The notes under the pieces are model-generated. The model searched no databases, was not told the DNA's origin, and saw only the letters and a program-made list of their open reading frames with translations. Positions 37,312 to 63,914 of a stretch of 64,000 bases of DNA are shown one piece after another (position 1 is the stretch's first letter; the number at the start of each line of letters is the position of its first letter). The stretch covers positions 8,826 to 72,825 of the forward strand of contig CAZFDK010000005.1 of assembly GCA_964518305.1 (NCBI GenBank). Direction: 5' to 3'. Origin of the DNA: an uncultured Gemmatimonadota bacterium. Lineage in GTDB: Bacteria > Gemmatimonadota > Gemmatimonadetes > Palauibacterales > Palauibacteraceae. Both the position numbers and the translations under genes were made by a program.

Positions 37312-37318
37312 CCCGGCC

Positions 37319-37546: not shown

Positions 37547-37570
37547 GGCATGCGTCCTTTCAGGGGTTCA

Positions 37571-39460: not shown

Positions 39461-39468
39461 GGTCAGGA

Positions 39469-39816
39469 TCACGGCGCCTCCTCCACCAGCTTCCGAACGA
39501 CGGCCCGGGCGAGCTGATCCACCGTCTCCTCGGTGGCCTGGCGATAGCGATGCGCGGTACGCTCCGCCCGTCGGCGTATCTCCTCGATGGCTTCGCGGTG
39601 CTCCGTCCGGACCCGCTCCCGGATATCGGTCAGCTCCTCCTCCAGCCGGGCGGCCTCGTCGCGGTGGAGGGCCCGCGCCTGCTCCCGCGCCGACTCGATT
39701 ACGTCCGCAGCGCGTCGGCGCGCCTCGGCGCGCGAGGCTTCCAGCTCGGACTCGGCCGCCAGCAGGCGGGCTAGGTCGCTGTCGACGGCCATATCCCGCT
39801 CGATGTCAGGACTCAT
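39469..39816 (-). CDS. V-type ATP synthase subunit G/H (peripheral stalk, coiled-coil)
   Basis: 115-aa Ala/Arg/Glu-rich coiled coil at the first position of the operon, matching the Thermus/Enterococcus order G-I-K-E-C-F-A-B-D. Confidence 0.6.
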   Translation of the reverse strand: MSPDIERDMAVDSDLARLLAAESELEASRAEARRRAADVIESAREQARALHRDEAARLEEELTDIRERVRTEHREAIEEIRRRAERTAHRYRQATEETVDQLARAVVRKLVEEAP

Positions 39817-40625: not shown

Positions 40626-40627
40626 CG

Positions 40628-44645: not shown

Positions 44646-44670
44646 GTCACCGATCGCCGCTCCCGCGAAG

Positions 44671-46245: not shown

Positions 46246-46798
46246 GACCTGCTCCCTCCTCTGTATTCCGTCTCGCGGCGTCCCGTACGGTGTCGCGTCC
46301 GGAACGCCCTCTCTCCCTCCTGGCCACCGTGCGCAGGGTACCGGAACCGCGACCCGACGGACACGATCCCGGCTCACAGTGTGGGCGGAAGCGAAGCTAA
46401 GCAAGCCCTCTGTCCTGCTTCAACCGACTCCCGTCGCGCCGGCCGGAACGGAGGCTACCTCGCGCTCCCGTCGCCGGGAGCCGGCCGGAACCCTGCGCGC
46501 CACCAACGATAGCCCGATCGGCGCGCGTGTCATGTCGGGAGCCCCCGGTGCGGGTTCGTGGGAAGACTCCCCACGTCGACGAAGGCCCTTGCCGGACCCC
46601 CACCGTCCGCTGAGGGGAGGCTTCCCACACGCCTGCGGCGGATTACACCACACCTGCCTCCGTGCGGGCCCCGACAGACGCTTTACGTCGACGTCTCTAG
46701 CTTGCGGTGCGAGCTTGAGGACGGGCCGGATCCGACGCCCGGCGCGCCCCCCGAGCGGCGCGAGCCGCCGGAACGTCCATCATCCCCGGGAGGCACCG

Positions 46799-47983: not shown

Positions 47984-47986
47984 CCC

Positions 47987-49825
47987 ATGCCGAACCGAGT
48001 CGTCGTCGACCCGATCACCCGAATCGAGGGGCATCTCCGGATCGAGGCCCAGGAGGAGAACGGGCGGATCCAGGACGCCTGGGCTTCGTCCACCCAGTTC
48101 CGCGGCATCGAGACCATCATGGAGGGGCGGGACCCGCGTGACGCCTGGGCGTTCACCCAGCGGATCTGCGGGGTGTGCACCGTGGTGCACGCCATCGCCT
48201 CCCTCCGCGCCGTGGAGGACGCCCTCGACATACGGATCCCGCCGAACGCCAACCTGATCCGGAACATCGTCCACGGCATCCAGACCATCCAGGACCACGT
48301 GATCCACTTCTATCACCTCCACGCCCTGGACTGGGTGGACGTGATGAGCGCCCTCGAGGCCGATCCGGCGGCGGCAGCCGACCTGGCCGGAAAGGTGTCG
48401 CCCTGGCCGAAGCACTCCCGCAACTACTTTCGCGAGATCAAGGGGCGCCTGGAGACGTTCGCGGAGAGCGGACAGCTGGGGATCTTCGCGAACGCCTACT
48501 GGGGGCACGACGCCTACAAGCTGCCCCCGGCCGCCAACCTCATGGCCGTGGCCCACTACCTGGAGGCGCTGGACTGGCAGCGGGATGTCATTCGGATCCA
48601 CACGATCTTCGGGGGCAAGAACCCGCACCCGAACTTCGTGGTGGGCGGGATGGCTTCTGCCATCAACCTGGACGACACGGCCACCATCAACGCCGAGAGC
48701 CTCACGGACATTCACGACATGATCGGCCGCGCCCGGCGCTTCGTGGAGCAGGTGTACTGGCCCGACCTGCTGACCATCGCCTCCTTCTACAAGGAGTGGG
48801 CCGCGATCGGTGACGGGGTGCCCAACTACCTGGCCTGCGGCGAGTTTCCCGAGAACGACGTCCGGGACATCGACTCGCTCTACTTTCCCCGGGGCATCGT
48901 CCTCGACAACGACCTGTCCACGGTGCACGAGTACGACCCCTCTCTGGTGAAGGAGTATGTGGACAGCTCCTGGTACAGCTACGAGGACGGTCCGGGCACG
49001 GGGCTCCACCCATACGACGGCGAGACGACGCCGAACTACACGGGGCCGGAACCGCCCTACGACTACCTGCAGGACGAGGAGAAATACACCTGGATGAAGG
49101 CTCCCCGCTACGAGGGGCGGCCCATGGAGGTCGGCCCGCTGGCGAGGATGCTCGTCGGGTACGCCTCCGGCCACGAGGACATCCAGGACGTCGTCGACGA
49201 CGCCCTCGGTCGGCTGGACGTCGGTCCCGAGGCCCTGTTCTCCACCCTGGGCCGGACGGCTGCGCGCGGTGCCGAGACCGTGCTCCTCGCCCGGAAGATG
49301 GAGGACTGGTACGACCGGCTGGTGCAGCGCATCCGGGGCGGCGACACCCGGACCTTCAACGGCGAGAAGTGGGAGCCGGACACGTGGCCGGAGTCGGCCC
49401 GCGGGTACGGCTACTGTGACGCCGCCCGCGGATCGCTGGGCCACTGGGTACGGATCGAGAACCAGGAGATCTCCCGCTACCAGTGCGTGGTCCCCAGCAC
49501 CTGGAACTGCTCCCCGCGAGACGCCGAGGGGCAGATGGGCCCCTACGAGGCCTCGCTGGTGGACAATCATCCCCTGGCCGATGCCGAGGAGCCGGTGGAG
49601 CTGCTGCGCACGATCCACTCCTTCGACCCCTGCATGGCCTGCGGCGCCCACGTCCTGGACGACCGCGGGAACGTGGTCACCAAGGTGCGGGTGGACCACG
49701 GCACCGGCCTGGGCTTCGGGAGTCCCCCGGACGTGCCCGAGGACGATGTCGGGCGGCCGTCGGACGACGACGCTACCCCGGCCGCGGCCACGCCGGACGC
49801 CTCGGAGGGGGGAGGTGGGTCGTGA
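47987..49825 (+). CDS. hyaB: [NiFe]-hydrogenase large subunit
   Basis: N-terminal 'RIEGH' and 'RICGVCT' Ni-Fe ligands. C-terminal 'DPCMACGAH' followed by a cleavable extension (VLDDRGNVV…). Confidence 0.95.
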   Translation: MPNRVVVDPITRIEGHLRIEAQEENGRIQDAWASSTQFRGIETIMEGRDPRDAWAFTQRICGVCTVVHAIASLRAVEDALDIRIPPNANLIRNIVHGIQTIQDHVIHFYHLHALDWVDVMSALEADPAAAADLAGKVSPWPKHSRNYFREIKGRLETFAESGQLGIFANAYWGHDAYKLPPAANLMAVAHYLEALDWQRDVIRIHTIFGGKNPHPNFVVGGMASAINLDDTATINAESLTDIHDMIGRARRFVEQVYWPDLLTIASFYKEWAAIGDGVPNYLACGEFPENDVRDIDSLYFPRGIVLDNDLSTVHEYDPSLVKEYVDSSWYSYEDGPGTGLHPYDGETTPNYTGPEPPYDYLQDEEKYTWMKAPRYEGRPMEVGPLARMLVGYASGHEDIQDVVDDALGRLDVGPEALFSTLGRTAARGAETVLLARKMEDWYDRLVQRIRGGDTRTFNGEKWEPDTWPESARGYGYCDAARGSLGHWVRIENQEISRYQCVVPSTWNCSPRDAEGQMGPYEASLVDNHPLADAEEPVELLRTIHSFDPCMACGAHVLDDRGNVVTKVRVDHGTGLGFGSPPDVPEDDVGRPSDDDATPAAATPDASEGGGGS

Positions 49826-50601
49826 CTGCTCAGCGGCAGCAGGAGGAAGCCGGCCGTCGCGCCACGCACGAGCCCGAGCGGACGGAGCAGCCCGGCCTGG
49901 GCCCCATCCCCCGTCCGCCGGAGGGCGATTACGAGTGGGTCTACCTGTGGCACTGGCCGATCCGCGCCATGCACTGGGTGGCCGCCGTGGCCATCGTGGC
50001 CCTCGTCGTCACGGGATTCTACATCGGAGCGCCCTATTTCATGACCACCGGCGAGCCGGCGAACCAGTACCTGATGGGGTGGATGCGATTCGTCCACTTC
50101 GCGGCCGCAGGCCTGCTGGTGGCCACCGGGATCGTGCGGGCCTACTGGCTCTTCGTCGGCAACAAGTTCGAGAGCTGGCGAGCCCTGTTCCCGTTCCGGC
50201 GGGAGGACTGGGCCAACATGTGGAAGATCGTGAAGCACTACATGCTGATCGGGGAGGAGGAGCCGGAGTACATGGGCCACAATCCGGTCCAGCAGATTTC
50301 CTATACCGGCCTGTACGCCGTGACCGTCGTGATGGTGCTCACAGGCTTCGCCATGTACGGCCAGTCGAATCCCGACGGCTTCTTCTACGCCACCTTCTCC
50401 TGGGTCAACGGGCTCCTGGGCGGCGTGCAGTACACCCGCTTCGTGCATCACGTCCTGACCTGGGTCTTTCTCATCTTCATTCCGATTCACGTCTACCTGA
50501 CCATCCGGGCCGAGATCACGGAATCCACCGGCACGGTCTCGTCCATGGTGAGCGGCGGGCGGTTCCTGCCGCGGGGCGAGGAGTTCGTCGATGAGGAGTG
50601 A
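49822..50601 (+). CDS. hyaC: Ni/Fe-hydrogenase b-type cytochrome subunit
   Basis: GTG start overlapping the hyaB stop (GTGA). Four TM helices with conserved His (…WHWPIRAMHWV…FVHFAAAG…VHHVLTW…). Confidence 0.85.
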   Translation: MTAQRQQEEAGRRATHEPERTEQPGLGPIPRPPEGDYEWVYLWHWPIRAMHWVAAVAIVALVVTGFYIGAPYFMTTGEPANQYLMGWMRFVHFAAAGLLVATGIVRAYWLFVGNKFESWRALFPFRREDWANMWKIVKHYMLIGEEEPEYMGHNPVQQISYTGLYAVTVVMVLTGFAMYGQSNPDGFFYATFSWVNGLLGGVQYTRFVHHVLTWVFLIFIPIHVYLTIRAEITESTGTVSSMVSGGRFLPRGEEFVDEE

Positions 50602-51184
50602 TCGCCCCGGAGAGGCCGGAGCGAGGCGCCGGCCCCGCCCCGGGGGAGCTCCGCCCGGGACGGGAGCACGGGTCGTCGTCATCGGCCTGGGGAACCCGCT
50701 CCTGGCGGACGACGGGGTCGGGCTGGCCGCGCTGGCGCGCCTCCGGGAGGAGTGGAGCCTCCCTTCCGACGTGGAGCTGCTGGACGGAGGCACGTGGGGA
50801 ATGATGCTCCTGCCCGCCGTGGAGGACGCCGACCGCCTGCTCCTGCTGGACGCCATCGACGTGGACGAGGAGCCCGGCGCCACGGTCGTCCTGGAGCGGG
50901 ACGAGCTGCCCCTCTTCCTCGACGGCAAGGTCTCCACGCATCAGGTGGGCATCCGGGAGGTCCTGGCCCTCGCGTCGCTTCGGGGGACCCTCCCGGAGGA
51001 GACGGTGGCCGTGGGCCTGCAGCCCGCCGAGGTGACCACCGAGACCGCCCTCAGCCCGGAGGCGGTGGCCGGCCTGGACGACCTGGTCGTCCGAGCCGTG
51101 GAGCGCCTCAGGGGTTGGGGGGTCGGTGCCGAGCACCAGGCCTCCGGGGGCGAGAGCACGCTGGCCGAGCCCGGCCGGGCCTGA
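50591..51184 (+). CDS. hyaD: Hydrogenase maturation endopeptidase (HyaD/HybD family)
   Basis: 'VVVIGLGNPLLADDGVGLAA…LLDGGTWGMMLL…LLLLDAID' = HycI/HyaD protease motifs. Confidence 0.85.
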   Translation: MRSDRPGEAGARRRPRPGGAPPGTGARVVVIGLGNPLLADDGVGLAALARLREEWSLPSDVELLDGGTWGMMLLPAVEDADRLLLLDAIDVDEEPGATVVLERDELPLFLDGKVSTHQVGIREVLALASLRGTLPEETVAVGLQPAEVTTETALSPEAVAGLDDLVVRAVERLRGWGVGAEHQASGGESTLAEPGRA

Positions 51185-51228
51185 GGACCGAGGATCTGGC
51201 CGATGCCGGACGGGACGGGGAGCCGACC

Positions 51229-51666
51229 GTGCACGAGATGAGTCTCGCCATGGAGGTGGGGCGAATGGCCGCCGAGCAGGTGGACCGGGAGGCCCTGCCC
51301 CGCGTCTCGGCCGTCGGCGTGGAGGTGGGCGACCGGGCGGGCGTGGTGGTCGATGCCCTGGAGTTCTGCCTCGAGGCCGTGCTCACCGAGCCCCCCTTCG
51401 ATGAGGCCCGTCCGGTGGTGGAGCGCTGCCGGGGCGACGTCCTCCGGCTGTCGTGGATCGACGTGGAGGAGGAAGAGGACGGGAGAGTGGAGGACGACCG
51501 GAGCGACGGCGAAGCGGCGCTGGATCGAGCCGCGGCCGGCACGACGGGCGGAAGGAGCGGGCCGAGCCCGCTGGGGGATGCGCCGCTCCCCTCCGAGGCC
51601 GGTCCGCCGCCCGGCGCCGGAGACGGAAGCAGAGCAGACTCGAACGAACGGGAAGGTGTCCGATGA
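51229..51666 (+). CDS. hypA: HypA-like hydrogenase Ni-insertion protein, atypical (lacks the Zn-finger cysteines)
   Basis: GTG start giving 'MHEMSLAMEVGRMAAEQV…', where the MHE N-terminus is the HypA Ni-binding motif. The C-terminal half is acidic/low-complexity (…DVEEEEDGRVEDDRSDGE…) with no CxxC…CxxC pair. Confidence 0.55.
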   Translation: MHEMSLAMEVGRMAAEQVDREALPRVSAVGVEVGDRAGVVVDALEFCLEAVLTEPPFDEARPVVERCRGDVLRLSWIDVEEEEDGRVEDDRSDGEAALDRAAAGTTGGRSGPSPLGDAPLPSEAGPPPGAGDGSRADSNEREGVR

Positions 51667-52355
51667 CGGTCCGCCGCATTCAGGTGCGCGAGAAAGTGAT
51701 GAAGAAAAACGACGAGCTGGCGGCCGACGTGCGGAGCCGGCTCACCGATTCGGGAGTGATCACCTACAACCTGGTCTCCTCGCCGGGGTCCGGGAAGACG
51801 GCCCTCCTGGAGGGCACGCTGGAGCGGCTGGACGCCGAGTTCCCCATCGCCGTCGTCACCGGAGACGTGCAGACGGAGAACGACGCGAACCGAATCGCGC
51901 GCCTCACGCCGCGGCTCGTGCAGGCCGTGGTCACCGACGGGGCGTGCCACCTGGACGCCCGGCAGGTCTCCGAGGCCCTGGACGCCGTGGACCTGGACGA
52001 GACGCGTCTCCTGTTCATCGAGAACGTGGGCAACCTGGTCTGTCCCGCGAGCTGGGACCTGGGCGAGCAGGACAAGGTCGTGCTGTTCTCGGTGACGGAG
52101 GGCGAGGACAAGCCGGTCAAGTACCCGAAGATGTTCCGGCTCGCCAGCTATGCGGTGATCACGAAGATGGACCTGCTCCCGCACCTGGACTTCGACGTCG
52201 ACCGGGCGGTGGAGCACGCCCGCGAGATCAATCCCGACCTCCGCTTCTTCTTCACCTCGGCCCGTAGCGGCGAGGGCATGGAGGAGTGGTGCGACTTCCT
52301 CCGATCCGAGGTCGGGACCGGGGAGTTCGCCCGAGCGTCGCTGGGCACCGACTAG
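51663..52355 (+). CDS. hypB: Hydrogenase nickel incorporation GTPase HypB
   Basis: Internal ATG 51663 of the 300-aa track ORF. G1 'SSPGSGKTALL', CH motif region '…GACHLDA…', G3 'FIENVGNLVCP'. No His-rich N-terminal tract. Confidence 0.88.
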   Translation: MTVRRIQVREKVMKKNDELAADVRSRLTDSGVITYNLVSSPGSGKTALLEGTLERLDAEFPIAVVTGDVQTENDANRIARLTPRLVQAVVTDGACHLDARQVSEALDAVDLDETRLLFIENVGNLVCPASWDLGEQDKVVLFSVTEGEDKPVKYPKMFRLASYAVITKMDLLPHLDFDVDRAVEHAREINPDLRFFFTSARSGEGMEEWCDFLRSEVGTGEFARASLGTD

Positions 52356-52378
52356 GAAAAGAGAAGAGGAGCGAGAAT

Positions 52379-52705
52379 ATGTGTCTGGGCGTGCCGGGCA
52401 GGGTGGTCGAGGTGAAGGGCGACGTCGCCGTCGTGGACTTCTGGGGCGTTCGGCGCGAGACGCGGCTCGACGTGGTCGACGAGCCGGTGTCGCCGGGCGA
52501 CTACATCCTCAACCACGTGGGCTTCGCGATCCGCAAGATCCCGGAGTCCGAGATCGGAGAGACGCTGGCCCTGTACAGCGAGCTGCTGGAGGAGGCCGGA
52601 GAGGACATGATGGCCGAGGACGTGCGCGACGAAATCGAGCAGGCGAGCATGCCCTCGTCGGATCCCGAGCCGGGCGTGCCGTCCGGCCTGGAGGGAAGCC
52701 GATGA
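52379..52705 (+). CDS. hypC: Hydrogenase assembly chaperone HypC/HupF
   Basis: Begins 'MCLGVPGRVVEV' (essential Cys2); ~108 aa. Confidence 0.88.
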   Translation: MCLGVPGRVVEVKGDVAVVDFWGVRRETRLDVVDEPVSPGDYILNHVGFAIRKIPESEIGETLALYSELLEEAGEDMMAEDVRDEIEQASMPSSDPEPGVPSGLEGSR

Positions 52706-53883
52706 GCGACGCGGTCGGAGGGCCCACGCCTGCCGCTCCCCCCGCGCCGGGCCCCACCGGCGGCGCCGGCGAGTCGGTGGGGGAGCTCAAGTTTCGTGAT
52801 CCCGAGAAGGCGCAGGCCCTGTCGGAGGCCCTCGAGCGGGTGGTGGGCGAGGTGGACCGGGACTCGGTCTCGGTCATGCACGTGTGCGGGAGCCACGAGC
52901 AGTCCATCGCCAAGTACGGCATCCGGACCATCCTCCCGGAGGCGCTGGACGTGATCATGGGGCCGGGCTGCCCGGTCTGCGTCACCGACATGCCCGAGGT
53001 GGACGAGGCCGTGGCGCTGGCCCGGCAGGGCGTCCGGGTCGCCACCTACGGCGACATGCTGCAGGTGCCGGGGACGGTGTCCTCCCTGGCCGACGCCCAG
53101 GCCGGCGGAGCCGAGGTGGACGTGGTGTACAGCGCCTCCCAGGCCGTGGAGCTGGCGCGGGAGACCGACGACGAGGTGGTCTTCTTCGCCAGCGGCTTCG
53201 AGACCACCGCCGTGGCCACCGCCGCCGTGGTGCTGGACGACCCGCCGGACAACTTCTCGGTGCTCTCGGCGCACAAGTACATCCCGCCGGTCATGGAGAT
53301 CGTGGCCGAGATGCCCCACACCCGGGTGGAGGGTTACCTGGCCGCGGGGCACGCCGCCACGATCACCGGCTCCGGCCTCTTCGAGCGCTTCGTGGACCGT
53401 CACCGCATCCCGGTGGCCGTGGCCGGATTCGAGCCCCTGGACGTGCTGGCCGGCCTGGTCCAGCTCGTGGAGCTCGTTCGGGACGGGGAGCCCCGCGTCG
53501 TGAACATGTATCCGCGGTGCGTCACCGAGGAGGGGAACCGGAACGCCCAGGAGCAGCTGTGGGAGGTGTTCCGCACCACGGGCGGCAAGTGGCGGGGCAT
53601 CGCTCACGTCCCCAACGGCAACCTGCGGATCCGGGACGAGTATGCGGGCGTCGACGCCCGCCGGCGCTTCGACATCGACGTCGGCGCGCTCCGGCGCGGC
53701 TCCCCGACCCCCCTGACGCAGGCCTGCATCTGCGGTGACATCATGGCCGGCCGATCCTCGCCCCACGATTGCCCGCTCTTCGGCGAGGAGTGCACGCCGG
53801 AGAATCCGGTGGGCGCCTGCATGGTGAGCAGCGAGGGCACCTGCAAGATCTGGCACCAGTACGGAGGACATCCCGACCTATGA
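52702..53883 (+). CDS. hypD: Hydrogenase formation protein HypD
   Basis: Conserved 'CGSHEQ', 'GPGCPVCV', and C-terminal 'CxCGDIMAG…CPLFGEECTPENPVGACMVSSEGTC' Fe-S motifs. ATGA overlaps at both ends. Confidence 0.92.
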   Translation: MSDAVGGPTPAAPPAPGPTGGAGESVGELKFRDPEKAQALSEALERVVGEVDRDSVSVMHVCGSHEQSIAKYGIRTILPEALDVIMGPGCPVCVTDMPEVDEAVALARQGVRVATYGDMLQVPGTVSSLADAQAGGAEVDVVYSASQAVELARETDDEVVFFASGFETTAVATAAVVLDDPPDNFSVLSAHKYIPPVMEIVAEMPHTRVEGYLAAGHAATITGSGLFERFVDRHRIPVAVAGFEPLDVLAGLVQLVELVRDGEPRVVNMYPRCVTEEGNRNAQEQLWEVFRTTGGKWRGIAHVPNGNLRIRDEYAGVDARRRFDIDVGALRRGSPTPLTQACICGDIMAGRSSPHDCPLFGEECTPENPVGACMVSSEGTCKIWHQYGGHPDL

Positions 53884-54953
53884 GCGAGGCCGCGCGGAGG
53901 AACGGACGGGAAGCGGGAGGCCCGACGACGGCCGTCGAGAAGGTCACCCTCAAGCACGGCGCCGGGGGCGGCGCCATGCGTCAGTTGATCGAGGAGTCGC
54001 TGGCGGCGGGCTTCCTGGACGAGCGCGACGGCGAGGTCGGGCTCTCCGCCATGGACGACGGGGCCGCCTTCGGGCTGCCCGACGGCCGCTGGCTCGTCCT
54101 GACCACCGACTCCCACGTCATCCATCCCTACCGCTTCCCCGGCGGAGACATCGGCCGCCTCGCGGTGGCCGGGACGGTGAACGATCTGGCCATGATGGGT
54201 GCTGCCGAGCCGCTGGGGCTCACCTCGGCGATGGTCGTGGAGGAGGGCCTGCCCCGGGACGAGCTCGAGGAGATTCAGTCTTCGATGCGGGCTACCTGCC
54301 GGGAGGCGGGAACCCGCGTCGTCACGGGCGACACCAAGGTCATGGGCCGCGGCGAGATCGACGGGATCGTGATCAACACCACGGGCGTGGGGTTCGCCGA
54401 TCCGCTGGTCCGGGATTCCGGCCTCCGGCCCGGGGACCGCGTCATCCTCACTGGGGAGATCGGTGATCACGGAATCGCCCTCATGGCGCTCCGCCACGAG
54501 CTGGACCTCCGGGGTGACCTGGTCTCGGACGTGGCCCCGCTCAACGGTCTGGTGGGACGGGCTCTCGGGGCCGCCGACGGCGGCATTACGGCCCTCAAGG
54601 ACCCGACCCGCGGCGGCGTGGCCAGCGCCCTGCACGAGATGGCGGAGAAGGCCGGCGTCTCGGTCGTGGTGCAGGAGCGGGCCGTCCCCGTCTCCGACGT
54701 GGTACGGTCGGCGGCCGAGATGCTGGGCCTGGACCCCTTCCACATCGCCAACGAGGGGAAGGCCCTGCTGGGCGTGCGCCCGGGATCGGCGCAGGCGGTG
54801 CTGGAGGCCATCCGGGAGCATCCGGCCGGCGGTCGCGCCGCCATCGTCGGTGAGGTCTCGGACGATCATCCCGGCCGGGTCGTACTGGACACCGGAATCG
54901 GGCGGCGACTGGTGACGGAGCCGCAGGGCGAGCCCCTGCCCCGGATCTGCTGA
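53880..54953 (+). CDS. hypE: Hydrogenase maturation carbamoyl dehydratase HypE
   Basis: AIR-synthase-like fold. Ends with the diagnostic C-terminal 'PRIC' (reactive Cys). Confidence 0.92.
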   Translation: MSEAARRNGREAGGPTTAVEKVTLKHGAGGGAMRQLIEESLAAGFLDERDGEVGLSAMDDGAAFGLPDGRWLVLTTDSHVIHPYRFPGGDIGRLAVAGTVNDLAMMGAAEPLGLTSAMVVEEGLPRDELEEIQSSMRATCREAGTRVVTGDTKVMGRGEIDGIVINTTGVGFADPLVRDSGLRPGDRVILTGEIGDHGIALMALRHELDLRGDLVSDVAPLNGLVGRALGAADGGITALKDPTRGGVASALHEMAEKAGVSVVVQERAVPVSDVVRSAAEMLGLDPFHIANEGKALLGVRPGSAQAVLEAIREHPAGGRAAIVGEVSDDHPGRVVLDTGIGRRLVTEPQGEPLPRIC

Positions 54954-55767: not shown

Positions 55768-56616
55768 ATGGAGAACATCCGCATGGAGCGGGAGGGCGGG
55801 GTGGGGATCATCACCATCGACCGCCCGGACCGCTTCAACTCCCTGGACGTGTCCACGGCGAAGGATTTCCGGAAGGCGGGGCTCCAGTATTCCCGCGAGG
55901 AGGACGTCCGGGCCGTGGTCCTCCGCGGCCGCGGCGACGTGTTCTGCAGCGGCGCCGACCTGAAGTACGTGCGGGACCACGGCGACGAGGAGGACTTCGG
56001 CTACCTGCAGCCCGAGGGAGTGGGGGCCGAGGAGGGCGGTCACGGCCGGGCCTTCAAGGAGATCCTGGAGTACATCCACAGCGCGATCTCGGAGATGAAG
56101 CGTGCACCGAAGCCCTTCCTGGCCGGCGTGGACGGCATGGCGGCGGCCGGGGGCTTCGGCATCGCCATGGCCTGCGACCTGGTCTTCGCGTCGGAGGACG
56201 CCCGCTTCGAGTGGGCCTACCACAAGACCGGTCTCACCGGGGCCGAGAGCTCCACCTTCTTCCTGCCCCGGCTCCTCGGGCTCCGAAAAGCGCTGGAGCT
56301 GGTGTTTCTGAACCCCCGGCTGAGCGCCCGGGAGGCCGCGGAGATGGGGCTGGTGAACCGGGTGTGGGCGGCGGAGGACTTCGACGACGAGCTGAGGGGC
56401 GTGGCCCGGGAGCTCGCCTCCGGGCCCACGGAGGCCTACGCCGTCGCCAAGCGGCTGGTGCACCAGGCCGCCGGCATCGACCAGCTGGACTACCACATGG
56501 ACGAGGAGCTTGAGAACCTGTCGCGGATCGCCGACGGCGAGGACTTCGCCGAGGGGCTGGAGGCCTTCTTCGAGGGGCGAAAACCCGACTTCGGCGGCGG
56601 GGACGTGTCCCGATGA
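55768..56616 (+). CDS. hypX: Enoyl-CoA hydratase/isomerase (crotonase)-fold protein; putative C-terminal module of a split HypX
   Basis: 'MENIRMEREGGVGIITIDRPDRFNSLD…VVLRGRGDVFCSGADL…FLAGVDGMAAAGGFGIAMACDLVFASEDARF' = crotonase oxyanion-hole motifs. Alternative GTG start at 55747 would overlap the formyltransferase stop. The two genes are in different reading frames. Confidence 0.6.
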   Translation: MENIRMEREGGVGIITIDRPDRFNSLDVSTAKDFRKAGLQYSREEDVRAVVLRGRGDVFCSGADLKYVRDHGDEEDFGYLQPEGVGAEEGGHGRAFKEILEYIHSAISEMKRAPKPFLAGVDGMAAAGGFGIAMACDLVFASEDARFEWAYHKTGLTGAESSTFFLPRLLGLRKALELVFLNPRLSAREAAEMGLVNRVWAAEDFDDELRGVARELASGPTEAYAVAKRLVHQAAGIDQLDYHMDEELENLSRIADGEDFAEGLEAFFEGRKPDFGGGDVSR

Positions 56617-57257
56617 CTGCCGCGTTGGAGGGGGCGCTGATCGGGCTGGTGGCCGGCGCCGGCCACGTGCTGGCCGGCGCCGACCACCTGGCGGTGGTCT
56701 CCCCGCTGGCCGCCAGCCGCCGGTCCGGCGCGTGGCGGACCGGCTTGCGGTGGGGGCTCGGCCACGCCGGCGGGGTGGCGGTGATCGGGGTGGCGGCGGC
56801 CCTGCTGCGGGAAGCGCTCCCCATGGAGCAGGTCACGGCGTGGAGCGAGCGGGCGGTGGGCATCAGCCTCATGGCCGTCGGGCTGTGGGCCCTGACGGCC
56901 GTGGTTCGGGTCCTGAGAGAATCCGAGGACGGCGATGGCCCCTCGCACGAGGTCCTGCATGGTCGGGAGGGGCGCGCGGCGTTCGCCGTGGGGCTTTTGC
57001 ACGGCACGGCCGGGGCCGGCCACGTCCTGGGCGTGCTGCCGGCCCTGGCGCTGCCCACCCGGCTCGGATCCATCGCCTACCTCCTCTCCTTCGCCGCCGG
57101 CACCGTGGCGGCGATGACGGTCTACGCGGCGGTGGTCGGCCAGGCCGGGCGGCGTCTGTCGCTCTCCGGACGCAACGCCTACGCGGGTCTGCTGGCCGGA
57201 TGCTCGGCCCTGTCGGTGGTCGTCGGGGCCTTCTGGCTCGGGCTGGTGGGGCCGTAG
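56613..57257 (+). CDS. hupE: HupE/UreJ-family membrane protein (putative Ni2+ uptake for hydrogenase)
   Basis: Two internally repeated halves each with an 'AG(A)GHVLxGxDHL'-type motif (GAGHVLAGADHLAVV; GTAGAGHVLGVLPAL). ~6 TM helices. Terminal gene of the hyp operon. Confidence 0.5.
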   Translation: MTAALEGALIGLVAGAGHVLAGADHLAVVSPLAASRRSGAWRTGLRWGLGHAGGVAVIGVAAALLREALPMEQVTAWSERAVGISLMAVGLWALTAVVRVLRESEDGDGPSHEVLHGREGRAAFAVGLLHGTAGAGHVLGVLPALALPTRLGSIAYLLSFAAGTVAAMTVYAAVVGQAGRRLSLSGRNAYAGLLAGCSALSVVVGAFWLGLVGP

Positions 57258-57275: not shown

Positions 57276-58232
57276 TCAGACGGCCAGTCCCGCGGCGAAG
57301 AGAGTCGCGTACGCGACGGCGAGCTGTCCCGCCTGCGGCGTGAGAGGCAGGAGATGCTTCCAGCGGTCGGCCCTCCTGACTCTCCGGAAGATCACGACGG
57401 CGTACGGAGCCGTCAGCAGGGGGAGGAGCACGGCGACGTCGTGACCGGAGCGCGGCACGAACCAGACGGGAACGGCGTACGCCAGGGCCGTGAGGACGCC
57501 CATCTCCACCTCCGTCCAGTCCCGGCCGATGATCACGGCCAGCGTCCGCTCCCCCTTCTCGCGATCGAAGCGAAGATCACGGATGTTGTCGATGAGGAGG
57601 ATGTTCGTGATCAGCGCGGCCATGGGCAGGCCGGCGGCCACCGACTCCAGCGTCAGCGCGTCTCCGGGTACGCCCGTCGGGAAACCCGTCGCCAGGTTCG
57701 ACGCGGCCTGGACGTAGTAGGTGCCGGAGACCGAGACGATGCCGAAGAATAGGAAGAAGAGCGGGTCGCCGAGTCCGCGGTCGCCGAGCCGGAGCGGATC
57801 GGACGAGTACGCCAGGCTGGCGCCGGCGCTGACGACCCCGAGGGCGAGCGCCGGCAGGCCACCGATCCGGACCAGGTAGGCGCCCGGGACCGCCGCCAGC
57901 AGGTAGCATCCGGCGGTGGCCCGGGCCAGGAGACGGAGGTCGACGACGCCCGCCTCCAGGGCACGGACCAGGAGCGGGTGCTCACGATCGTCGGGATGGC
58001 GGCGGAGGTTGTGGTAGTTGTCCGCGATCACTCCGCCGAGCTGGATCAGCCATCCGGCGGCCAGGGCCGCGGTCGCTGCCCACGGGGCGAAGACGCCGTC
58101 GTGGAGGGCGAGGCCCGCGGCCACGACGACCGGTGCCAGCGCGGTGGGAAGAGTGTGGCGCGGATAGACGAGCATCCGCACCCAGACGTCGCGCCGGGTG
58201 GGGACCTCGGTTGACGGGGAGGGGGCCGACAT
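57276..58232 (-). CDS. UbiA-family aromatic prenyltransferase (MenA-like)
   Basis: 318 aa, 8-9 TM. Asp-rich motif region 'IADNYHNLRRHPDDREHP' and second motif '…DNIRDLRFDREKGERT' consistent with UbiA/MenA. Confidence 0.65.
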   Translation of the reverse strand: MSAPSPSTEVPTRRDVWVRMLVYPRHTLPTALAPVVVAAGLALHDGVFAPWAATAALAAGWLIQLGGVIADNYHNLRRHPDDREHPLLVRALEAGVVDLRLLARATAGCYLLAAVPGAYLVRIGGLPALALGVVSAGASLAYSSDPLRLGDRGLGDPLFFLFFGIVSVSGTYYVQAASNLATGFPTGVPGDALTLESVAAGLPMAALITNILLIDNIRDLRFDREKGERTLAVIIGRDWTEVEMGVLTALAYAVPVWFVPRSGHDVAVLLPLLTAPYAVVIFRRVRRADRWKHLLPLTPQAGQLAVAYATLFAAGLAV

Positions 58233-58367
58233 GCAGGGGTTTCTCGTGGTCGGGGACGGAACCGACGGGGTCGAAGCTGGATATCATGTGGAGAGACTCC
58301 GCGGGACGCCAGCGTTCGTGCCGGCTACCGTGGATTGGTCAGGTCAGCGCGGGAGGAGAGAGTAGCG

Positions 58368-59765
58368 ATGAGCATGTCCTGGCTACCGGGGCCCGGCGAG
58401 GCAGTCCTGATGCTGCAGCATATGCAGCAGCCGGGCCCGCACACCCGCCCCGGCGAGGAGATGGGCGCCCCGCTTCCCGGCGGGATCGCCGAGGTGCTGC
58501 GATTCTTCTTCTCCGGCGTCCCGCAGTGGATCCAGATCGGCGGGGCGATTCTCGGCTTCATCGTGGCCGTATGGCTGGCCGTCTTCCTGTGGAACCGTCG
58601 TCTCGAGATCTGGGAGTGGATCCGCACCCGTCCGGCGATGGTCCAGTCCGCGATGGGGCTGGCCGTGGTGATCTTCATCACCGGCGCGGCCTGGTTCGGC
58701 CAGGAGGCGTGGAACTACACGCAGCACGAGAATGCCTTCTGCGTCTCCTGCCACGTGATGGGGGGCTCCTTCGAGCGCTTCACGCAGAGCGAGCACTCTG
58801 AGCTCGAGTGCCACGACTGTCACCAGCAGCCCATCAGCGCCAGCATGCGGCAGGTCTACCTCTGGGTGGTGGAGCGCCCCGAGGAGATCGGGGGGCACGC
58901 GCCGGTCGCGAACGAGGTCTGTGCGGAGTGCCACATCCAGTCGGATCCGGACAGCACCTGGCAGCGCATCGCGGCCACCGCCGGCCACCGGATCCACCTG
59001 GAGTCGGATTCCTCCGCGCTGGAGGACGTGATGTGCGTTACCTGCCACGGGGAGGAGGTGCACCGATTCGTGCCGGCCGACCAGACCTGCGCCCAGTCGG
59101 ACTGCCACGCCGAGAGCGACACCGAGATCGTACTGGGCAAGATGGCCTCCTCCCAGACCACCTTCCACTGCCTGAGCTGCCACGAATACACGGCTCCGGC
59201 CCCGGAGCAGGCCTCGCTGGACACCGCCCTGACGGCGCTCAGCCCCTCCCGCACGCAGTGCCTGGCGTGTCACGAGATGCAGGAGGAACTGGAGACGCTC
59301 CAGGTGGGCGAGGACCCCCACGGCCCCGGGTGCGGCCAGTGCCACAACCCGCACTCACAGGAGCAGCCGGATGTGGCCTTCGCCACCTGTACGGGCGCCG
59401 GATGCCACGCGAGCCCCGACACCCTGACGCCCTTCCACCGGGACCTGGCCGGGGCGAAGCTCGAGGACTGCGCCGCCTGCCACGAGGCCCATACGTGGGA
59501 GGTGGAGGGAAGCAACTGCGGTGCGTGCCACGCGGACATCGCCGGCGCCGAGCCGGGGGAGCCGCTTCCGGGCGACCATCCGGAGATGAATGTCGGTGAC
59601 ACGGCGGTGGCTGCATCGGGACTCCCGGACGGCCACCCCTCAGTGAGGGCGTCGGGCGACCTCCCCGCCGTGTCGACCGTCCGGGGCGAGCTTCCCGAGG
59701 GGCATCCGTCGATGCCGCCGAGGTGGCGGTCGCTGCCCTCCGACCACCCGTCCGTGCAACCTTAA
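58368..59765 (+). CDS. Membrane-anchored multiheme c-type cytochrome with C-terminal (LPxGHPS)x4 repeats
   Basis: Start ATG 58368 after GGGAGGAGAG. N-terminal TM (GGAILGFIVAVWLAVFLW) plus a second TM. CxxCH: CVSCH, CHDCH, CAECH, CVTCH, CLSCH, CLACH, CGQCH, CAACH, CGACH, plus CAQSDCH and CTGAGCH (Cx4CH). C-terminal tail 'LPGDHPEM…LPDGHPSV…LPEGHPSM…LPSDHPSV'. Confidence 0.85.
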   Translation: MSMSWLPGPGEAVLMLQHMQQPGPHTRPGEEMGAPLPGGIAEVLRFFFSGVPQWIQIGGAILGFIVAVWLAVFLWNRRLEIWEWIRTRPAMVQSAMGLAVVIFITGAAWFGQEAWNYTQHENAFCVSCHVMGGSFERFTQSEHSELECHDCHQQPISASMRQVYLWVVERPEEIGGHAPVANEVCAECHIQSDPDSTWQRIAATAGHRIHLESDSSALEDVMCVTCHGEEVHRFVPADQTCAQSDCHAESDTEIVLGKMASSQTTFHCLSCHEYTAPAPEQASLDTALTALSPSRTQCLACHEMQEELETLQVGEDPHGPGCGQCHNPHSQEQPDVAFATCTGAGCHASPDTLTPFHRDLAGAKLEDCAACHEAHTWEVEGSNCGACHADIAGAEPGEPLPGDHPEMNVGDTAVAASGLPDGHPSVRASGDLPAVSTVRGELPEGHPSMPPRWRSLPSDHPSVQP

Positions 59766-59892: not shown

Positions 59893-61110
59893 ATGGCCGA
59901 ACGACCTGGTGACGACACGATCCGTTTCCATCCACCGGTCCGACGGCCGGCGACCGGCCGAGCACCGTCGGCCGTGCTCGTCGCGCTGGCCCTTGTCCTG
60001 ACCCTTCCTGTCGCCCTCCCCGCACAGGAGTCCGGCGTCGTGGCGGCGGCGGACGTGGCCTCGGGCGACGTCTCGCTCCTCGATGCCACCTGCTGGGGCG
60101 TGGCGGCCCGGATGAGCATGGGGGGAGAGGTCCATCAGCTGTCGCCGGCGTCGGGAGGAGCCCGAGCCTACGTGGCGCATTCGGTGCGGCGGCCCGGTGC
60201 ATCCGGGAACGGCGGAGCCGATCGGGGACCGGCGCCTCCGGCCGAGGCGAAGAGCGTCGCCGCGGTGGGGGCCGTGACGGTGCTGGATCTGGCGGCGCGG
60301 CGGACCACGGGCCGGTTCCATCTCGGGCGCACCGGGACCATCACGGACGTGTGGGCGGGGCACGAGGGGAGCCGCATCTGGGTCGCGGCGGAGCGGAACG
60401 GCCGAGTGCTCACGCTCGACGCGGACACCGGTGAGCTCCTGATGAAGTGGACGATCGGAGAGAGCTCCCCGCAGTCCGGGGCCGTGAGCCGCGACGACCG
60501 CTATCTCTTCGTCACGAACCGCGAGGCCGGGACCCTGACCGTCATCGATCGCGTGACCGTGGCGGCGAACACGGTACCGCTGGGCCGGGGTGTCGGGAGC
60601 GTGGCCGTCGGTCCGCAGGGCGAGGCATGGGTCGCCGATCGGGACGACGACCGCCTGTGGATCGTGGACGGGCGCTCGGAGGAGGTCCTGGGCGAGCTAC
60701 CGTCGGGCGGGTCGGTTCCCGTTCAGCTTCAGCGGCGTCCCGGTGCCGAGGAGATGTGGGCCCTCCACTCGGACAGCGGCGGGGTGCAGATCTTCGACAC
60801 CGGGGGACTGCGGCGGGTCGGGAGCGTGCAGCTGCCGGGCCGGCCGCGCGCTCTCCGCTTCTCGCCCGACGGCCGGCGAGCGCTGGTGACGGTGCCGGAC
60901 CCGGGCCTCGTGGTCATGGTCGATGCGGTCGGGCGGCGGGTGCTGGACACGGCGCGCGTTCCCCTGCGGCCGGGTGCCCTGGGCTGGTTCCCCTGCCCGG
61001 ACGGCCGTTGCGGGCCCGGTGCCTCCCGGTGGCGAAAGGGCCGAGCGGGGCTCCCCGGCGAGCACTGGAGCAAGGCCGACCTGGTCGGCGACCTGTGGTG
61101 CGGCGGCTGA
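59893..61110 (+). CDS. Secreted beta-propeller protein (YVTN/lactonase-type 7-bladed propeller-like)
   Basis: Signal peptide (…VLVALALVLTLPVALPAQES). Repeated '…G…(V/L)xVxDxxxxxV…' blade pattern, e.g. 'RYLFVTNREAGTLTVID', 'EAWVADRDDDRLWIVD', 'RALVTVPDPGLVVMVD'. Confidence 0.6.
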   Translation: MAERPGDDTIRFHPPVRRPATGRAPSAVLVALALVLTLPVALPAQESGVVAAADVASGDVSLLDATCWGVAARMSMGGEVHQLSPASGGARAYVAHSVRRPGASGNGGADRGPAPPAEAKSVAAVGAVTVLDLAARRTTGRFHLGRTGTITDVWAGHEGSRIWVAAERNGRVLTLDADTGELLMKWTIGESSPQSGAVSRDDRYLFVTNREAGTLTVIDRVTVAANTVPLGRGVGSVAVGPQGEAWVADRDDDRLWIVDGRSEEVLGELPSGGSVPVQLQRRPGAEEMWALHSDSGGVQIFDTGGLRRVGSVQLPGRPRALRFSPDGRRALVTVPDPGLVVMVDAVGRRVLDTARVPLRPGALGWFPCPDGRCGPGASRWRKGRAGLPGEHWSKADLVGDLWCGG

Positions 61111-61325: not shown

Positions 61326-61389
61326 ATTCCGGGGGCTCGTCTGGTCGACGCCACCGGAGCCGCCTGTGTTCACGGGGAGGATCGTCCGT

Positions 61390-62799
61390 ATGCCGAAGAC
61401 CACAGCCATCGACAGGGTGGGAGGGCTGCTCGTGGCGGCGGCCACGGCTCTCCTCCTGCCCGCGGCGCCGGCCGGGGCGCAGCAGGCCCCGGGCGCCGAG
61501 CCGGACAGCGTCCTTCGCCGCCCGCTCACGCTCGAGGAGACCGTCGCCGAGGCGATGGAGGGAAACCCGGACCTGAAGGCGAGCCGTCTCCGCGAGCGGA
61601 TGGCCGGTGCCGGCGTCCAGGGGGCGACCAGCGCGCTCCTGCCCCGCGTCGAGGTCACCAGCGGCTGGCAGCGGACGACCGATCCGGTGGGCGTCTTCGG
61701 GACGAAGCTCCGGCAGGGACGCTTCGCGCGCGGGGACCTGGCCATCGACGTCCTGAACGACCCGGCCCCGATCTCCGACTGGACCTCGGCGGCGGAGGTC
61801 CAGTGGAGCGTGGTGGATCCCAGCCGATGGGCGCAGAGGAGCGCGGCCTCCAGCCAGGCGGCCGCGGCCCGGTGGCGCGCGGAGCGGACCCGCGAGGGCA
61901 CGGAGTTCCGGGCGCGGGCCCTCTATTACGGGGCGGCCCGGGCCGAAGCCCAGCTGGAGGCGGCACAGGCCGCCGAGGACGCCGCCGAGTCCAACCTGGA
62001 GCTGTTCCGCAGGCGGCGGGACGAGGGCCTCCTGACCGACGCCGACGTTCTTCAGGCCGAGGCGGAGGTGGAAGCCGCCCGAGCCCGCCGGATCGAGGCG
62101 CGAAAAAACCTCGGGGAGGCTCGGGAGCAGCTGGGGCTCTTCCTGGGCTGGAGTCCCGACTCCGTCCCCGTTCCGGCCGACACGATGGCTTCGCCGGAGG
62201 CGCCGTCGGCGGAGGGGGTGTTCCGCCCGGAGGAACGGGCCGACCTGCAGGCCCTCGAGGCCATGGCCGAAGCGGCGCGTTCCGAGGAGGACGTCGCCTG
62301 GCGCCGGTACCTGCCGGCCCTGGACGCCTTCGGCCGCTGGGCCCTCCACGACGCCGACACGCCGCTCGGCTCCGATGGAGACCACTGGTCGGTGGGCCTC
62401 CAGCTCCGGTGGACGGTCTTCGCGGGCCTCGGCCGAGAGGCGGCCCGGAAGCGGGCGGACCTCTCCGCGCAGGAGGCCAGGCTCCAGTACACGAGCGCGG
62501 TGCGCGAGGCCACTGCCGAGGTACGCCAGGCCCGGCGCGCCGTGGAGTCCGCCCGTCAGCGCCTGGAAGCGACGCGCGCAGCGCGCCGTGCCGCGGAGCG
62601 GGGTCGTGACCTGACGCGGCGCCGGTTCGAGGAGGGGCTCGCCATCGCCTCGGACGTACTCCTGGCCGAGAGCCGGGTGACGGCCATGCGAAGCCGGGCC
62701 ATCGAGGCTCTGGCCGGTTACCACGTAGCACGGGCCCGCCTCCGCTTCGCGCGATCACAGGATGTCAGCGATTCGAGCAGCCCCGGAGAGGGACGATGA
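61390..62799 (+). CDS. TolC-family outer membrane efflux protein
   Basis: Signal peptide 'MPKTTAIDRVGGLLVAAATALLLPAAPAGAQ'. Outer-membrane-factor coiled-coil repeats. Alternative GTG start at 61366. Confidence 0.8.
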   Translation: MPKTTAIDRVGGLLVAAATALLLPAAPAGAQQAPGAEPDSVLRRPLTLEETVAEAMEGNPDLKASRLRERMAGAGVQGATSALLPRVEVTSGWQRTTDPVGVFGTKLRQGRFARGDLAIDVLNDPAPISDWTSAAEVQWSVVDPSRWAQRSAASSQAAAARWRAERTREGTEFRARALYYGAARAEAQLEAAQAAEDAAESNLELFRRRRDEGLLTDADVLQAEAEVEAARARRIEARKNLGEAREQLGLFLGWSPDSVPVPADTMASPEAPSAEGVFRPEERADLQALEAMAEAARSEEDVAWRRYLPALDAFGRWALHDADTPLGSDGDHWSVGLQLRWTVFAGLGREAARKRADLSAQEARLQYTSAVREATAEVRQARRAVESARQRLEATRAARRAAERGRDLTRRRFEEGLAIASDVLLAESRVTAMRSRAIEALAGYHVARARLRFARSQDVSDSSSPGEGR

Positions 62800-62846
62800 T
62801 TGGACACGAACAGAGCGACAGCTCGCCCCCTGCGGGGGGCACGACG

Positions 62847-63914
62847 ATGCGGGCCGCGACCGTTGCGGCGGGGATCTTTCTCGCCGCGGCCCTGGCGGCG
62901 TGCGGCGGAGAGGACGGGGCTCCCCACCGGGAGTCGGTCTCGCCGGTGGACGTCCAGGTGACCGGCGCCGAGACGGCGGCCACGGAGCGCTCCGTGGCCG
63001 CCACCGTGGAGGCGGCCAGCTCCGCCGACATCGCCACGCGGATGAGCGGCACCGTCGAGCGGGTGGCCGTGGACGTCGGGAGCCGTGTCAGCCGCGGCGA
63101 CACGCTCGTGGCCCTGGACGAGGAGGACGTGGAGGCCCGGATCTCCCGGGCCGAGGCCGCGCTCCGGAAGGCGGAGAAGTACTACGACCGCATCCAGTCG
63201 CTGGCCGCCGACGGCGCGGCCACCGAGCAGGAGCTGGACGACGCCCGGGCAGGCCTGGAGCAGGCCCGGGCGGCCCTCGAGGAGGCCAGGGCGCAGCGCG
63301 CCTATGTCGTACTAAGGGCGCCCTTCGACGGCGTCGTGACCCGGCGGAACGTGGACCCGGGCGACCTGGCCTCCCCGGGCCGGCCCGTACTCAACCTGGT
63401 CGAGGCCGGATCCGTGAAGATCGTGGCCGACCTGCCGGCGGAGCTGGCGCCGGAGGTGAAGTCCGGGACCCGGGCGACGGTGGTGGATCCAGCGAGCGGC
63501 CGAACCGCCGCCGCCGAGATCGTGCGCGTGTCGCCGGCCGTGGAGGCCTCCACCCGGCAGTTCCGCGTGGAGGCCCGCTTCCGTGAGGGAGGGAGCGGCG
63601 GACTCGCTCTCTCGCCCGGAAGCTTCGTGCGGCTCCGGCTGCCGGGGTTCGCGCCGCCCTCGGTGTGGGTCCCCCGGGACGCCGTGGTACAGCGCGGCCA
63701 GCTCGCCGGCGTCTTCGTCCTGCGGTCCGATACGCTCCGGCTCCACTGGATCCGGACCGGTGAGCGCCGCGACGGCAGCGTGGAGGCCCTGGCGGGTCTC
63801 TCGCCCGGCGACAGTGTCGTACGGAGCCCGGCGTCCCGCCTGGCGGACGGCACGCCCGCCGGAGACGTGACCAGCCGCTCGTGGGCGCCGACGGACACGG
63901 GAGGCGGTCGATGA
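62847..63914 (+). CDS. Efflux RND transporter periplasmic adaptor (membrane fusion protein), lipoprotein
   Basis: Lipobox 'MRAATVAAGIFLAAALAACGG'. Biotinyl-lipoyl/beta-barrel MFP motifs (…GDTLVALDEED…YVVLRAPFDGVVTRRNVDPGDL…). ORF track start 62796; internal ATG 62847 preferred. Confidence 0.8.
   Translation: MRAATVAAGIFLAAALAACGGEDGAPHRESVSPVDVQVTGAETAATERSVAATVEAASSADIATRMSGTVERVAVDVGSRVSRGDTLVALDEEDVEARISRAEAALRKAEKYYDRIQSLAADGAATEQELDDARAGLEQARAALEEARAQRAYVVLRAPFDGVVTRRNVDPGDLASPGRPVLNLVEAGSVKIVADLPAELAPEVKSGTRATVVDPASGRTAAAEIVRVSPAVEASTRQFRVEARFREGGSGGLALSPGSFVRLRLPGFAPPSVWVPRDAVVQRGQLAGVFVLRSDTLRLHWIRTGERRDGSVEALAGLSPGDSVVRSPASRLADGTPAGDVTSRSWAPTDTGGGR

Follow-up and report, generated by a model that had tools for sequence, protein, structure and literature searches.

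Which part does a membrane-anchored multiheme cytochrome with a repetitive C-terminal tail play in the electron transfer of an uncultured Gemmatimonadota bacterium? The question is raised by a gene near the end of a 64,000-nucleotide stretch of contig CAZFDK010000005.1 (assembly GCA_964518305.1, positions 8,826 to 72,825 of the forward strand), the whole of which we call the window. A sequence-only reading of this DNA had cast its product as the quinol-oxidising entry point of an extracellular electron transfer (EET) chain, in a role akin to that of CymA, ImcH, or CbcL. This assignment gains support from homology to NrfH, from a CxxCHxM motif at heme 1, and from operon synteny in 66–76 of 89 related loci. 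With moderate confidence, we take the protein to be the quinol-linked part, in the inner membrane, of a multiheme conduit across the envelope that was seen here in Gemmatimonadota alone. Members of this phylum are abundant in soils and sediments, and their respiratory versatility is poorly known.

On the forward strand, the reading frame opens with a TTG at 58335 and closes with the stop at 59765. Translation probably begins at the ATG at 58368, in agreement with the close homologues P0001 and P0002, which begin at the matching methionine. With a G+C content of 0.87 at third codon positions, the gene resembles its neighbours in a window of 70–72% G+C; a scan of the target locus for promoters and terminators found none. 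As had been read from the letters, the product carries nine CxxCH motifs (starting at residues 125, 148, 185, 223, 268, 298, 322, 368, and 384) and two Cx4CH motifs (241 and 341). All 33 cysteines and histidines of these 11 motifs are invariant in an alignment of 62 family members. In the same alignment, 12 histidines outside the motifs are invariant or nearly so (H120, 143, 149, 177, 207, 210, 232, 267, 318, 329, 357, and 375), and M131 is likewise invariant. Since these residues suffice as axial ligands for 11 hemes, the protein can do without ligands from the tail, and the earlier suggestion that the tail forms an additional ligand array for the protein's own hemes is not supported. The second Cx4CH motif (CTxAGCH) aligns to the Cx4CH site of tetraheme cytochrome c3 when the family profile is compared with the PDB (E about 0.004). 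It is exchanged for CxxCH in some homologues, and the long forms described below carry 18+2 or 17+3 motifs of the two kinds. Both Cx4CH motifs appear to be genuine heme sites.

By sequence, the protein falls within the NapC/NirT/NrfH superfamily through its N-terminal module, with the hallmark of a membrane helix (residues 90–110) followed by the first heme motif at C125. The Pfam family NapC/NirT (PF03264) matches at 25.5 bits, just over its cut-off of 24.1, and is found in 42 of the 62 family members. The NCBIfam model for NrfH (TIGR03153) reaches an E-value of 1.6e-15 and 57.4 bits, below its cut-off of 134.2 and over profile positions 5–60 only, and the scores for TorC (22 against a cut-off of 455) and NapC (14 against 349) are far too low. 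The best match in the PDB is the quinol dehydrogenase NrfH (2j7a_C), detected by phmmer with the single sequence (E 1e-4) and more strongly with the family profile (E 9.6e-9), and it spans the anchor helix and hemes 1–3. In this alignment, Met49 of NrfH falls on the invariant M131, Asp89 on the invariant Q162, and Lys82 on S157. A preprint on ImcH models a glutamine opposite heme 1 (bioRxiv 10.1101/2023.05.03.539133), which makes Gln162 suggestive as a quinol-site residue. For the His/Gln coordination of heme 1 ascribed to ImcH, Gln162 would be the candidate residue here. Quinol chemistry would be expected at the heme 1 module.

The membrane anchor, left by the sequence-only reading at one or two helices, comprises two according to hydropathy and AlphaFold2. 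They are modelled as a helical hairpin (predicted local distance difference test score, pLDDT, 82–97), and there is no hydrophobic segment C-terminal of residue 112. The N-terminal region is well conserved, with P35, P37, R45, P52, and Q56 invariant in the 62 sequences. The segment that joins the helices, NRRLEIWEWIRTRP, is basic, and c-type hemes have to be periplasmic; by the positive-inside rule, the topology is thus probably N-out, hairpin, C-out. Both termini and all hemes would then lie on the periplasmic side.

In this analysis, the family was seen in one phylum only. A search of 5.8 billion proteins yielded more than 750 homologues whose source organism, where named, is a member of the Gemmatimonadota, and the family occurs in at least 273 GTDB species, from which the GTDB scan returned 80 loci, all of them from Gemmatimonadota. 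A recurrent neighbourhood was first seen on the annotated contigs of three homologues. When the window proteins were compared by tblastn with 89 related loci, the same gene order was found on one strand in 66–76 of them; loci lacking the full order are mostly short contigs. The operon starts with a multiheme cytochrome of ~500 amino acids, followed by the family gene (11 hemes, NrfH-like), a 9-heme cytochrome, a ~490-residue protein without Pfam match, and a second multiheme cytochrome. The second and third genes are fused into one 20-heme protein in 57 of the 120 database matches and in most GTDB loci. The separate 9-heme cytochrome of the window matches the extra domain of the fused form, represented by the C-terminal half of P0038, at 43% identity (E 1e-39). 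The fused proteins measure 580–690 amino acids (L005, L011–L015, L017–L020, and most of L022–L088), and the linkers of one large fused subclade bear conserved motifs of their own, PPLPFDTTxALRR and KGKGD. Further, one metagenome-assembled genome (GCA_964607465.1) contains two whole clusters (L001 and L010), each with a divergent NrfH-like gene; identity to the target is 62% for the gene of L001 and 81% for that of L010. Thus, paralogous conduits exist within one genome. A hydrogenase adjoins the operon in 9 further loci of the 89. The papers found on Gemmatimonadota and multiheme cytochromes contain no description of this operon; a 2026 paper on a multiheme selenoenzyme concerns an unrelated periplasmic enzyme and was set aside.

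The fourth gene is the putative porin. Its AlphaFold2 model (pLDDT 83, predicted template modelling score 0.75) consists of a signal peptide followed by ~24 long antiparallel strands in an all-beta fold. Foldseek matches this model to porins, AlgE, the FimD usher, and MtrB at E-values from 1e-9 to 3e-7 (MtrB, 6r2q_B, 3e-7). Searches of Pfam and NCBIfam gave no match, nor did the barrel family profile against the PDB sequences. Judged by sequence and structural models, the operon holds what looks like the parts list of a porin–cytochrome conduit across the envelope that has a quinol-linked entry of its own in the inner membrane.

On this basis, the following path can be proposed. The helical hairpin would anchor the protein, with both ends and the hemes in the periplasm. 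Helix 2 and hemes 1–4 would form an NrfH-type module, in which menaquinol could be oxidised, or quinone reduced, beside heme 1, which sits in CxxCHxM with the invariant glutamine in the place of Asp89 of NrfH. Hemes 5–11 would serve as a wire passing electrons to the 9-heme periplasmic cytochrome, separate here and fused in many relatives, and from there onward through the ~24-strand outer-membrane barrel with the two further multiheme cytochromes. The NiFe hydrogenase and its cytochrome b encoded nearby could feed the quinone pool, so that one route might run from H2 via hydrogenase and cytochrome b to menaquinone, the target cytochrome, and the conduit. Both the direction of electron flow and the formation of a complex are what we infer from these parts.

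Several observations weigh against this assignment. To begin with, the target gene does not lie inside the operon in this genome but 12 kb away in divergent orientation, and the slot between 44645 and 44671, which normally holds the NrfH-like gene, is an empty gap of 25 nt. L010 speaks rather for the assignment: a cluster 79–83% identical to that of the window has its 81%-identical family gene, truncated by the end of the contig, directly divergent from it; since the orientation is equal and a 12-kb hydrogenase/hyp block lies between, the window layout looks like that of L010 with a block set between cluster and gene. A further point against is that Ser157 stands in the place of Lys82, a residue of functional importance in NrfH. 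The AlphaFold2 heme domain is poor (mean pLDDT 58) and captures neither heme packing nor the quinol site, and the Foldseek matches of this model (E above 1) are therefore meaningless. The C-terminal tail is missing from nearly all orthologues, unfused ones (L001, P0005–P0008) included, and is thus not required for the function of the family, while its synteny with a beta-propeller gene rests on three closely related contigs. We know of no characterised member of this 11-heme family, and the searched literature contained none.

Moreover, no sequence feature sets a direction, and the same conduit may run in reverse, with electrons drawn from a donor outside the cell (Fe(II), a cathode, or a partner cell) and the target reducing the quinone pool. 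Homologues of CymA and of CbcL/MtoC indeed occur in metal reducers and metal oxidisers alike (Zhong & Shi, 2018, PMC6295460). The uptake-type NiFe hydrogenase and cytochrome b beside the cluster, here and in the 9 further loci, fit a conduit that serves as an electron sink, and on this circumstantial ground we regard electron uptake as unlikely.

The tail poses a question of its own. Its four LPxxHP motifs are real, although they are spaced by 19, 23, and 14 residues and not evenly, as had been stated. A six-frame translation of the 64-kb window contains the pattern six times in total, and four of these occurrences fall inside the 66-residue tail, a clustering that is not due to chance. Among the 120 best homologues and the 89 loci, four copies are found only in the window (and in L090, a Logan contig identical to it) and in two relatives, P0001/L008 at 92% identity and P0002/L007 at 86%. 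A single copy followed by a genuine stop, with no remnants in other frames, is present in P0003/L009 (76%), and the remaining short forms stop a few residues past the last heme. Neighbour-joining on the core sequence gives the tail clade two fused 20-heme proteins, P0004 and P0009, as its sister group. The tail and the linkers of these two share the starting residues ADIAGA, and the linker of P0009 includes DVRGVPPDHPFVGG, a string similar to the third repeat of the tail, TVRGELPEGHPSMP. The tail probably arose from the linker between the domains of an ancestral fused protein, its motif having multiplied afterwards.

Searches beyond the family returned no further relatives. The tail alone found none in a word-indexed protein search, and a pattern scan of JGI metagenome contigs gave only one 35-codon chance reading frame. 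An exhaustive phmmer search of 1.84 billion representatives produced 16 matches, all of them tetratricopeptide repeat (TPR)/CHAT proteins with LPEGHPDIA in 42-residue units. These repeats of the TPR_12/KLC type, the only matches to the tail, share the string LP[ED]GHP with it. In these proteins of ~1000 residues, the string marks the start of a helix in regular units, whereas the tail is irregular, disordered, and devoid of TPR helices; we judged the likeness to be a coincidence of motif. A similar string, HLPPDGHPR, precedes the signal peptide of the barrel and is not conserved in 119 homologues, which leaves it as a chance occurrence. A C-terminal sorting signal (LPXTG, PEP-CTERM, and the like) was rejected as well, as no hydrophobic segment follows the motifs.

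The tail is most likely a flexible docking or tethering peptide for the 9-heme cytochrome or for the co-syntenic beta-propeller protein. The propeller gene directly follows in all four-copy forms, the one-copy form having a different gene at this place, and its product is a candidate docking partner. A neutral origin deserves weight beside this: the linker remnant may have drifted and expanded by slippage after loss of the 9-heme domain, tolerated as disordered. The tail is lineage-specific, its copy number ranges from 1 to 4 within 76–92% identity, L007 has a 4-residue indel between repeats 2 and 3, disorder is predicted (AlphaFold2 pLDDT about 30), and constraint is weaker than in the core (ratio of nonsynonymous to synonymous substitution rates, dN/dS, 0.31–0.44 in the tail and 0.18–0.21 in the core among the three four-copy sequences). 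These values are nevertheless well below 1. In the same three sequences, none of the 16 columns of the motif core varies as opposed to 21 of 65 elsewhere in the tail (Fisher p=0.0045), with the same L, P, H, and P in every one of the 12 motif copies, which argues, in a small sample, that the motif is maintained by selection. The DNA copies of the repeats are 72–81% alike and hence no recent tandem duplicates, so that the motif appears to have been kept rather than freshly copied. We regard purely neutral persistence as unlikely.

The alternative that the tail binds metal (Ni, Cu, Zn, or Fe) in the periplasm, for instance to buffer it for the hydrogenase or cytochrome machinery, would make use of the histidines and, in two of the four motifs, of a methionine. 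The motif core is conserved, each of its four conserved histidines is followed by Pro-Ser/Glu-Val/Met with Asp/Glu nearby, and genes for NiFe hydrogenase and Hyp proteins lie within 12 kb. Four histidines in 66 residues and no cysteine are nevertheless unlike the His-rich tails that bind Ni or Cu. To our knowledge, PxxHP, with histidine flanked by proline on both sides, is not a metal site, which counts against this function, as do the absence of the tail from orthologues that likewise adjoin hydrogenases and the lack of anything alike outside TPR proteins in the exhaustive search. Docking fits the tail better than metal binding in view of its probable linker origin, and we consider a metal-binding tail very unlikely. 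Returning to docking, a specific form of it would be that, in this lineage, a peptide tether has taken the place of the covalent fusion seen in the 20-heme inner-membrane wire of sister proteins: the old linker would have become four short linear LPxxHP motifs that reversibly dock a periplasmic partner on the quinol dehydrogenase, the motif histidines possibly contacting a partner heme. In such detail the proposal is quite unlikely to hold. If true, the tether would be a new protein–protein recognition element in respiratory conduits, within an undescribed, Gemmatimonadota-wide, hydrogenase-associated EET system.

It is extremely improbable that the target, in the manner of NrfH, NapC, and TorC, serves outside EET as membrane anchor for, and electron donor to, a conventional periplasmic reductase for nitrite, nitrate, trimethylamine N-oxide (TMAO)/dimethyl sulfoxide, or hydroxylamine: among annotated proteins it comes closest to NrfH, TorC, and NapC, and many homologues carry the JGI label "nitrate/TMAO reductase-like tetraheme cytochrome c subunit", but the NCBIfam equivalog scores for all three lie far below cut-off, the protein has 11 hemes and not 4–5, its conserved neighbours are multiheme cytochromes and a beta-barrel, and no such reductase gene adjoins it in the window or in the annotated loci. 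The sequence-only reading had named two findings that together would refute it. The first, absence of the repeat from orthologues, holds below about 76–86% identity and marks the repeat as lineage-specific. The second was orthology to a characterised cytochrome linked to nitrite, TMAO, or hydroxylamine; no enzyme for these substrates adjoins the target in the window or in those related loci that are annotated, and a gene for the NrfH partner NrfA was not found near it there either.

Interest attaches mostly to the Gemmatimonadota-wide operon and the fused 20-heme form, and less to the repeat. The gene marks an uncharacterised operon that is spread across the phylum, often beside an uptake hydrogenase, with what appears to be a full conduit parts list. 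If functional, this operon would give Gemmatimonadota the capacity for EET, and the fused 20-heme form could stretch a long way across the periplasm. The tail, in turn, may be viewed as a small natural experiment on the fate of an inter-domain linker once the domains separate.

The other genes around the target are listed with it in the table. Besides the hydrogenase genes, the block between operon and target holds genes for a formyltransferase, an enoyl-CoA hydratase, a 214-residue membrane protein, and a MenA-like prenyltransferase. The best NCBIfam matches of the last are MenA models, all below their cut-offs, and the gene is syntenic in L007, L008, and L090; a gene of menaquinone synthesis would thus stand beside a putative menaquinol oxidase. 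The enoyl-CoA hydratase was considered as MenB and rejected, as only generic crotonase models match. The 214-residue protein has no family match in Pfam or NCBIfam even at E<=10, and in L014, L015, and L022 the region upstream of the cluster holds a homologue of it (51–54% identity); its HVLAGADH resembles the Hx5DH signature of HupE/UreJ nickel transporters. With the genes that follow the propeller gene, an efflux system begins that shows no obvious connection to the cytochrome.

Table. Position, strand, and character of the target gene, its parts, and the surrounding features of the window (numbered from the first nucleotide of the window)
Feature	Position	Strand	Remarks
Shine-Dalgarno-like GGAGGAG	58352–58358	+	Read from sequence; 9 nt 5′ of ATG 58368
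Coding sequence, 465-aa undecaheme inner-membrane cytochrome (stop included)	58368–59765	+	Stop TAA 59763–59765; family gene, second in the operon of related loci
N-terminal segment, residues 1–53	58368–58526	+	Net acidic, presumably periplasmic; contains conserved PLPGG...R...VPQW
Transmembrane helix 1, residues 54–76	58527–58595	+	Hydropathy; AlphaFold2 helix 53–76, pLDDT above 90
Transmembrane helix 2, residues 90–110	58635–58697	+	Hydropathy, AlphaFold2; aligned to NrfH N-terminal helix
NrfH/NapC-like module, hemes 1–4 (CVSCHVM, CHDCH, CAECH, CVTCH)	58716–59057	+	Putative quinol site near heme 1 (Met131, Gln162)
Heme-wire part, hemes 5–11	59058–59543	+	Includes both Cx4CH; last four hemes cytochrome-c3-like
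C-terminal tail, residues 393–465	59544–59762	+	Predicted disordered, lineage-specific
LPxxHP motif 1, LPGDHP, residue 400	59565–59582	+	
LPxxHP motif 2, LPDGHP, residue 419	59622–59639	+	
LPxxHP motif 3, LPEGHP, residue 442	59691–59708	+	Resembles P0009 linker motif VRGVPPDHPFV
LPxxHP motif 4, LPSDHP, residue 456	59733–59750	+	
Gene run with V/A-type ATPase-like N-terminal sequences	32099–39816	−	From reading-frame translations alone
Conserved cluster including TPR lipoprotein	40053–46404	−	
Multiheme cytochrome, 16 CxxCH	40628–42380	−	Homologue of operon gene 5; listed reading frame to 42763, start probably near 42380
Outer-membrane beta-barrel, ~24 strands, putative conduit porin	42373–43908	−	Homologue of operon gene 4; AlphaFold2, Foldseek
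9-heme periplasmic c3/c7-like cytochrome	43905–44645	−	Homologue of operon gene 3; fused to family protein C-terminus in 20-heme relatives
Lipoprotein-signal multiheme cytochrome, 577 aa, 8 CxxCH + 1 Cx4CH	44671–46404	−	Homologue of operon gene 1, first gene; signal ends in Cys
NiFe hydrogenase small and large subunits and cytochrome b subunit	46244–50601	+	Between operon and target
Hydrogenase region with HycI protease and HypB/C/D/E	46244–54953	+	Cytochrome b subunit at 49483–50601
214-aa hydrophobic protein	56613–57257	+	Contains HVLAGADH
MenA-like 1,4-dihydroxy-2-naphthoate prenyltransferase	57276–58232	−	Divergent from target
YVTN/YncE-like seven-bladed beta-propeller	59893–61110	+	Directly downstream; hydrophobic signal-peptide-like N-terminus read from translation
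TolC-like outer-membrane efflux protein and HlyD-type membrane-fusion protein	61366–63914	+	3′ of propeller gene

Comparison with characterised quinol dehydrogenases places the target in a separate family that plausibly works as a quinol:cytochrome oxidoreductase like ImcH or CymA. With NrfH of Desulfovibrio vulgaris (PDB 2j7a/2vr0), it shares the anchor helix followed by CxxCHxM and a spacing of 23 residues between hemes 1 and 2. Helix 2 is the counterpart of the single NrfH anchor helix, whereas helix 1 is absent from NrfH and CymA, and the PLPGG...VPQW segment ahead of it has no NrfH counterpart. NrfH is a tetraheme protein of about 140–160 residues, in contrast to the 11 hemes and 465 residues with an extra N-terminal helix found here, and neither its Lys82 nor its Asp89 is kept. 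CymA of Shewanella and TorC/DorC are NapC/NirT-type quinol dehydrogenases that pass electrons to periplasmic partners, and TorC provides an example of C-terminal heme additions to a tetraheme core. This class has 4–5 hemes, and CymA itself is a tetraheme protein with a single helix, as against 11 hemes and two helices in the target. CymA homologues have been reported only in Proteobacteria (PMC6295460).

The sequence-only reading had called for comparison with the ImcH and CbcL families, and the helix, heme-motif, and domain features that define them are absent. ImcH of Geobacter sulfurreducens (GSU3259), proposed and shown to oxidise menaquinol for EET, is likewise an inner-membrane protein with an NrfH-like module and extra hemes. 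It differs by three transmembrane helices, a CX3CH first motif, 7 (6–10) hemes, and long heme-free stretches, whereas the target has two helices, a canonical CxxCHxM first motif, no Cx3CH, and 11 closely spaced hemes, and is thereby set apart by the published features of ImcH. Its heme motifs start at 125/148/185/223/241/268/298/322/341/368/384 and do not fit the spacing of ImcH, with motifs at 132/156/205/311/428/448/486 (Table S3, PMC6295460). For Gemmatimonas sp. SM23_52, homologues of ImcH have been reported, and these follow the architecture of ImcH, unlike the target. CbcL, MtoC, and MtrH are inner-membrane entry points with 3–23 c-type hemes, encoded near porin–cytochrome genes (PMC6295460); they bear a C-terminal six-helix HydC/FdnI-like di-heme b domain, of which hydropathy and Pfam give no sign in the target.

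At the level of the whole conduit, MtrCAB, the Geobacter OmaB-OmbB-OmcB and Ext systems, and PCC3/PCC4 also co-encode a barrel with periplasmic and lipoprotein or extracellular multiheme cytochromes. The barrel of the window has no sequence match to MtrB, PioB, or any Pfam family, and its likeness to MtrB lies in the modelled fold. The PCC3/PCC4 clusters use a five-helix b-type inner-membrane protein (PMC5566968). Here, the operon includes the inner-membrane cytochrome, which is often fused to its periplasmic neighbour. If functional, it would represent a third architecture, beside ImcH and CbcL, that links the quinone pool to such conduits.

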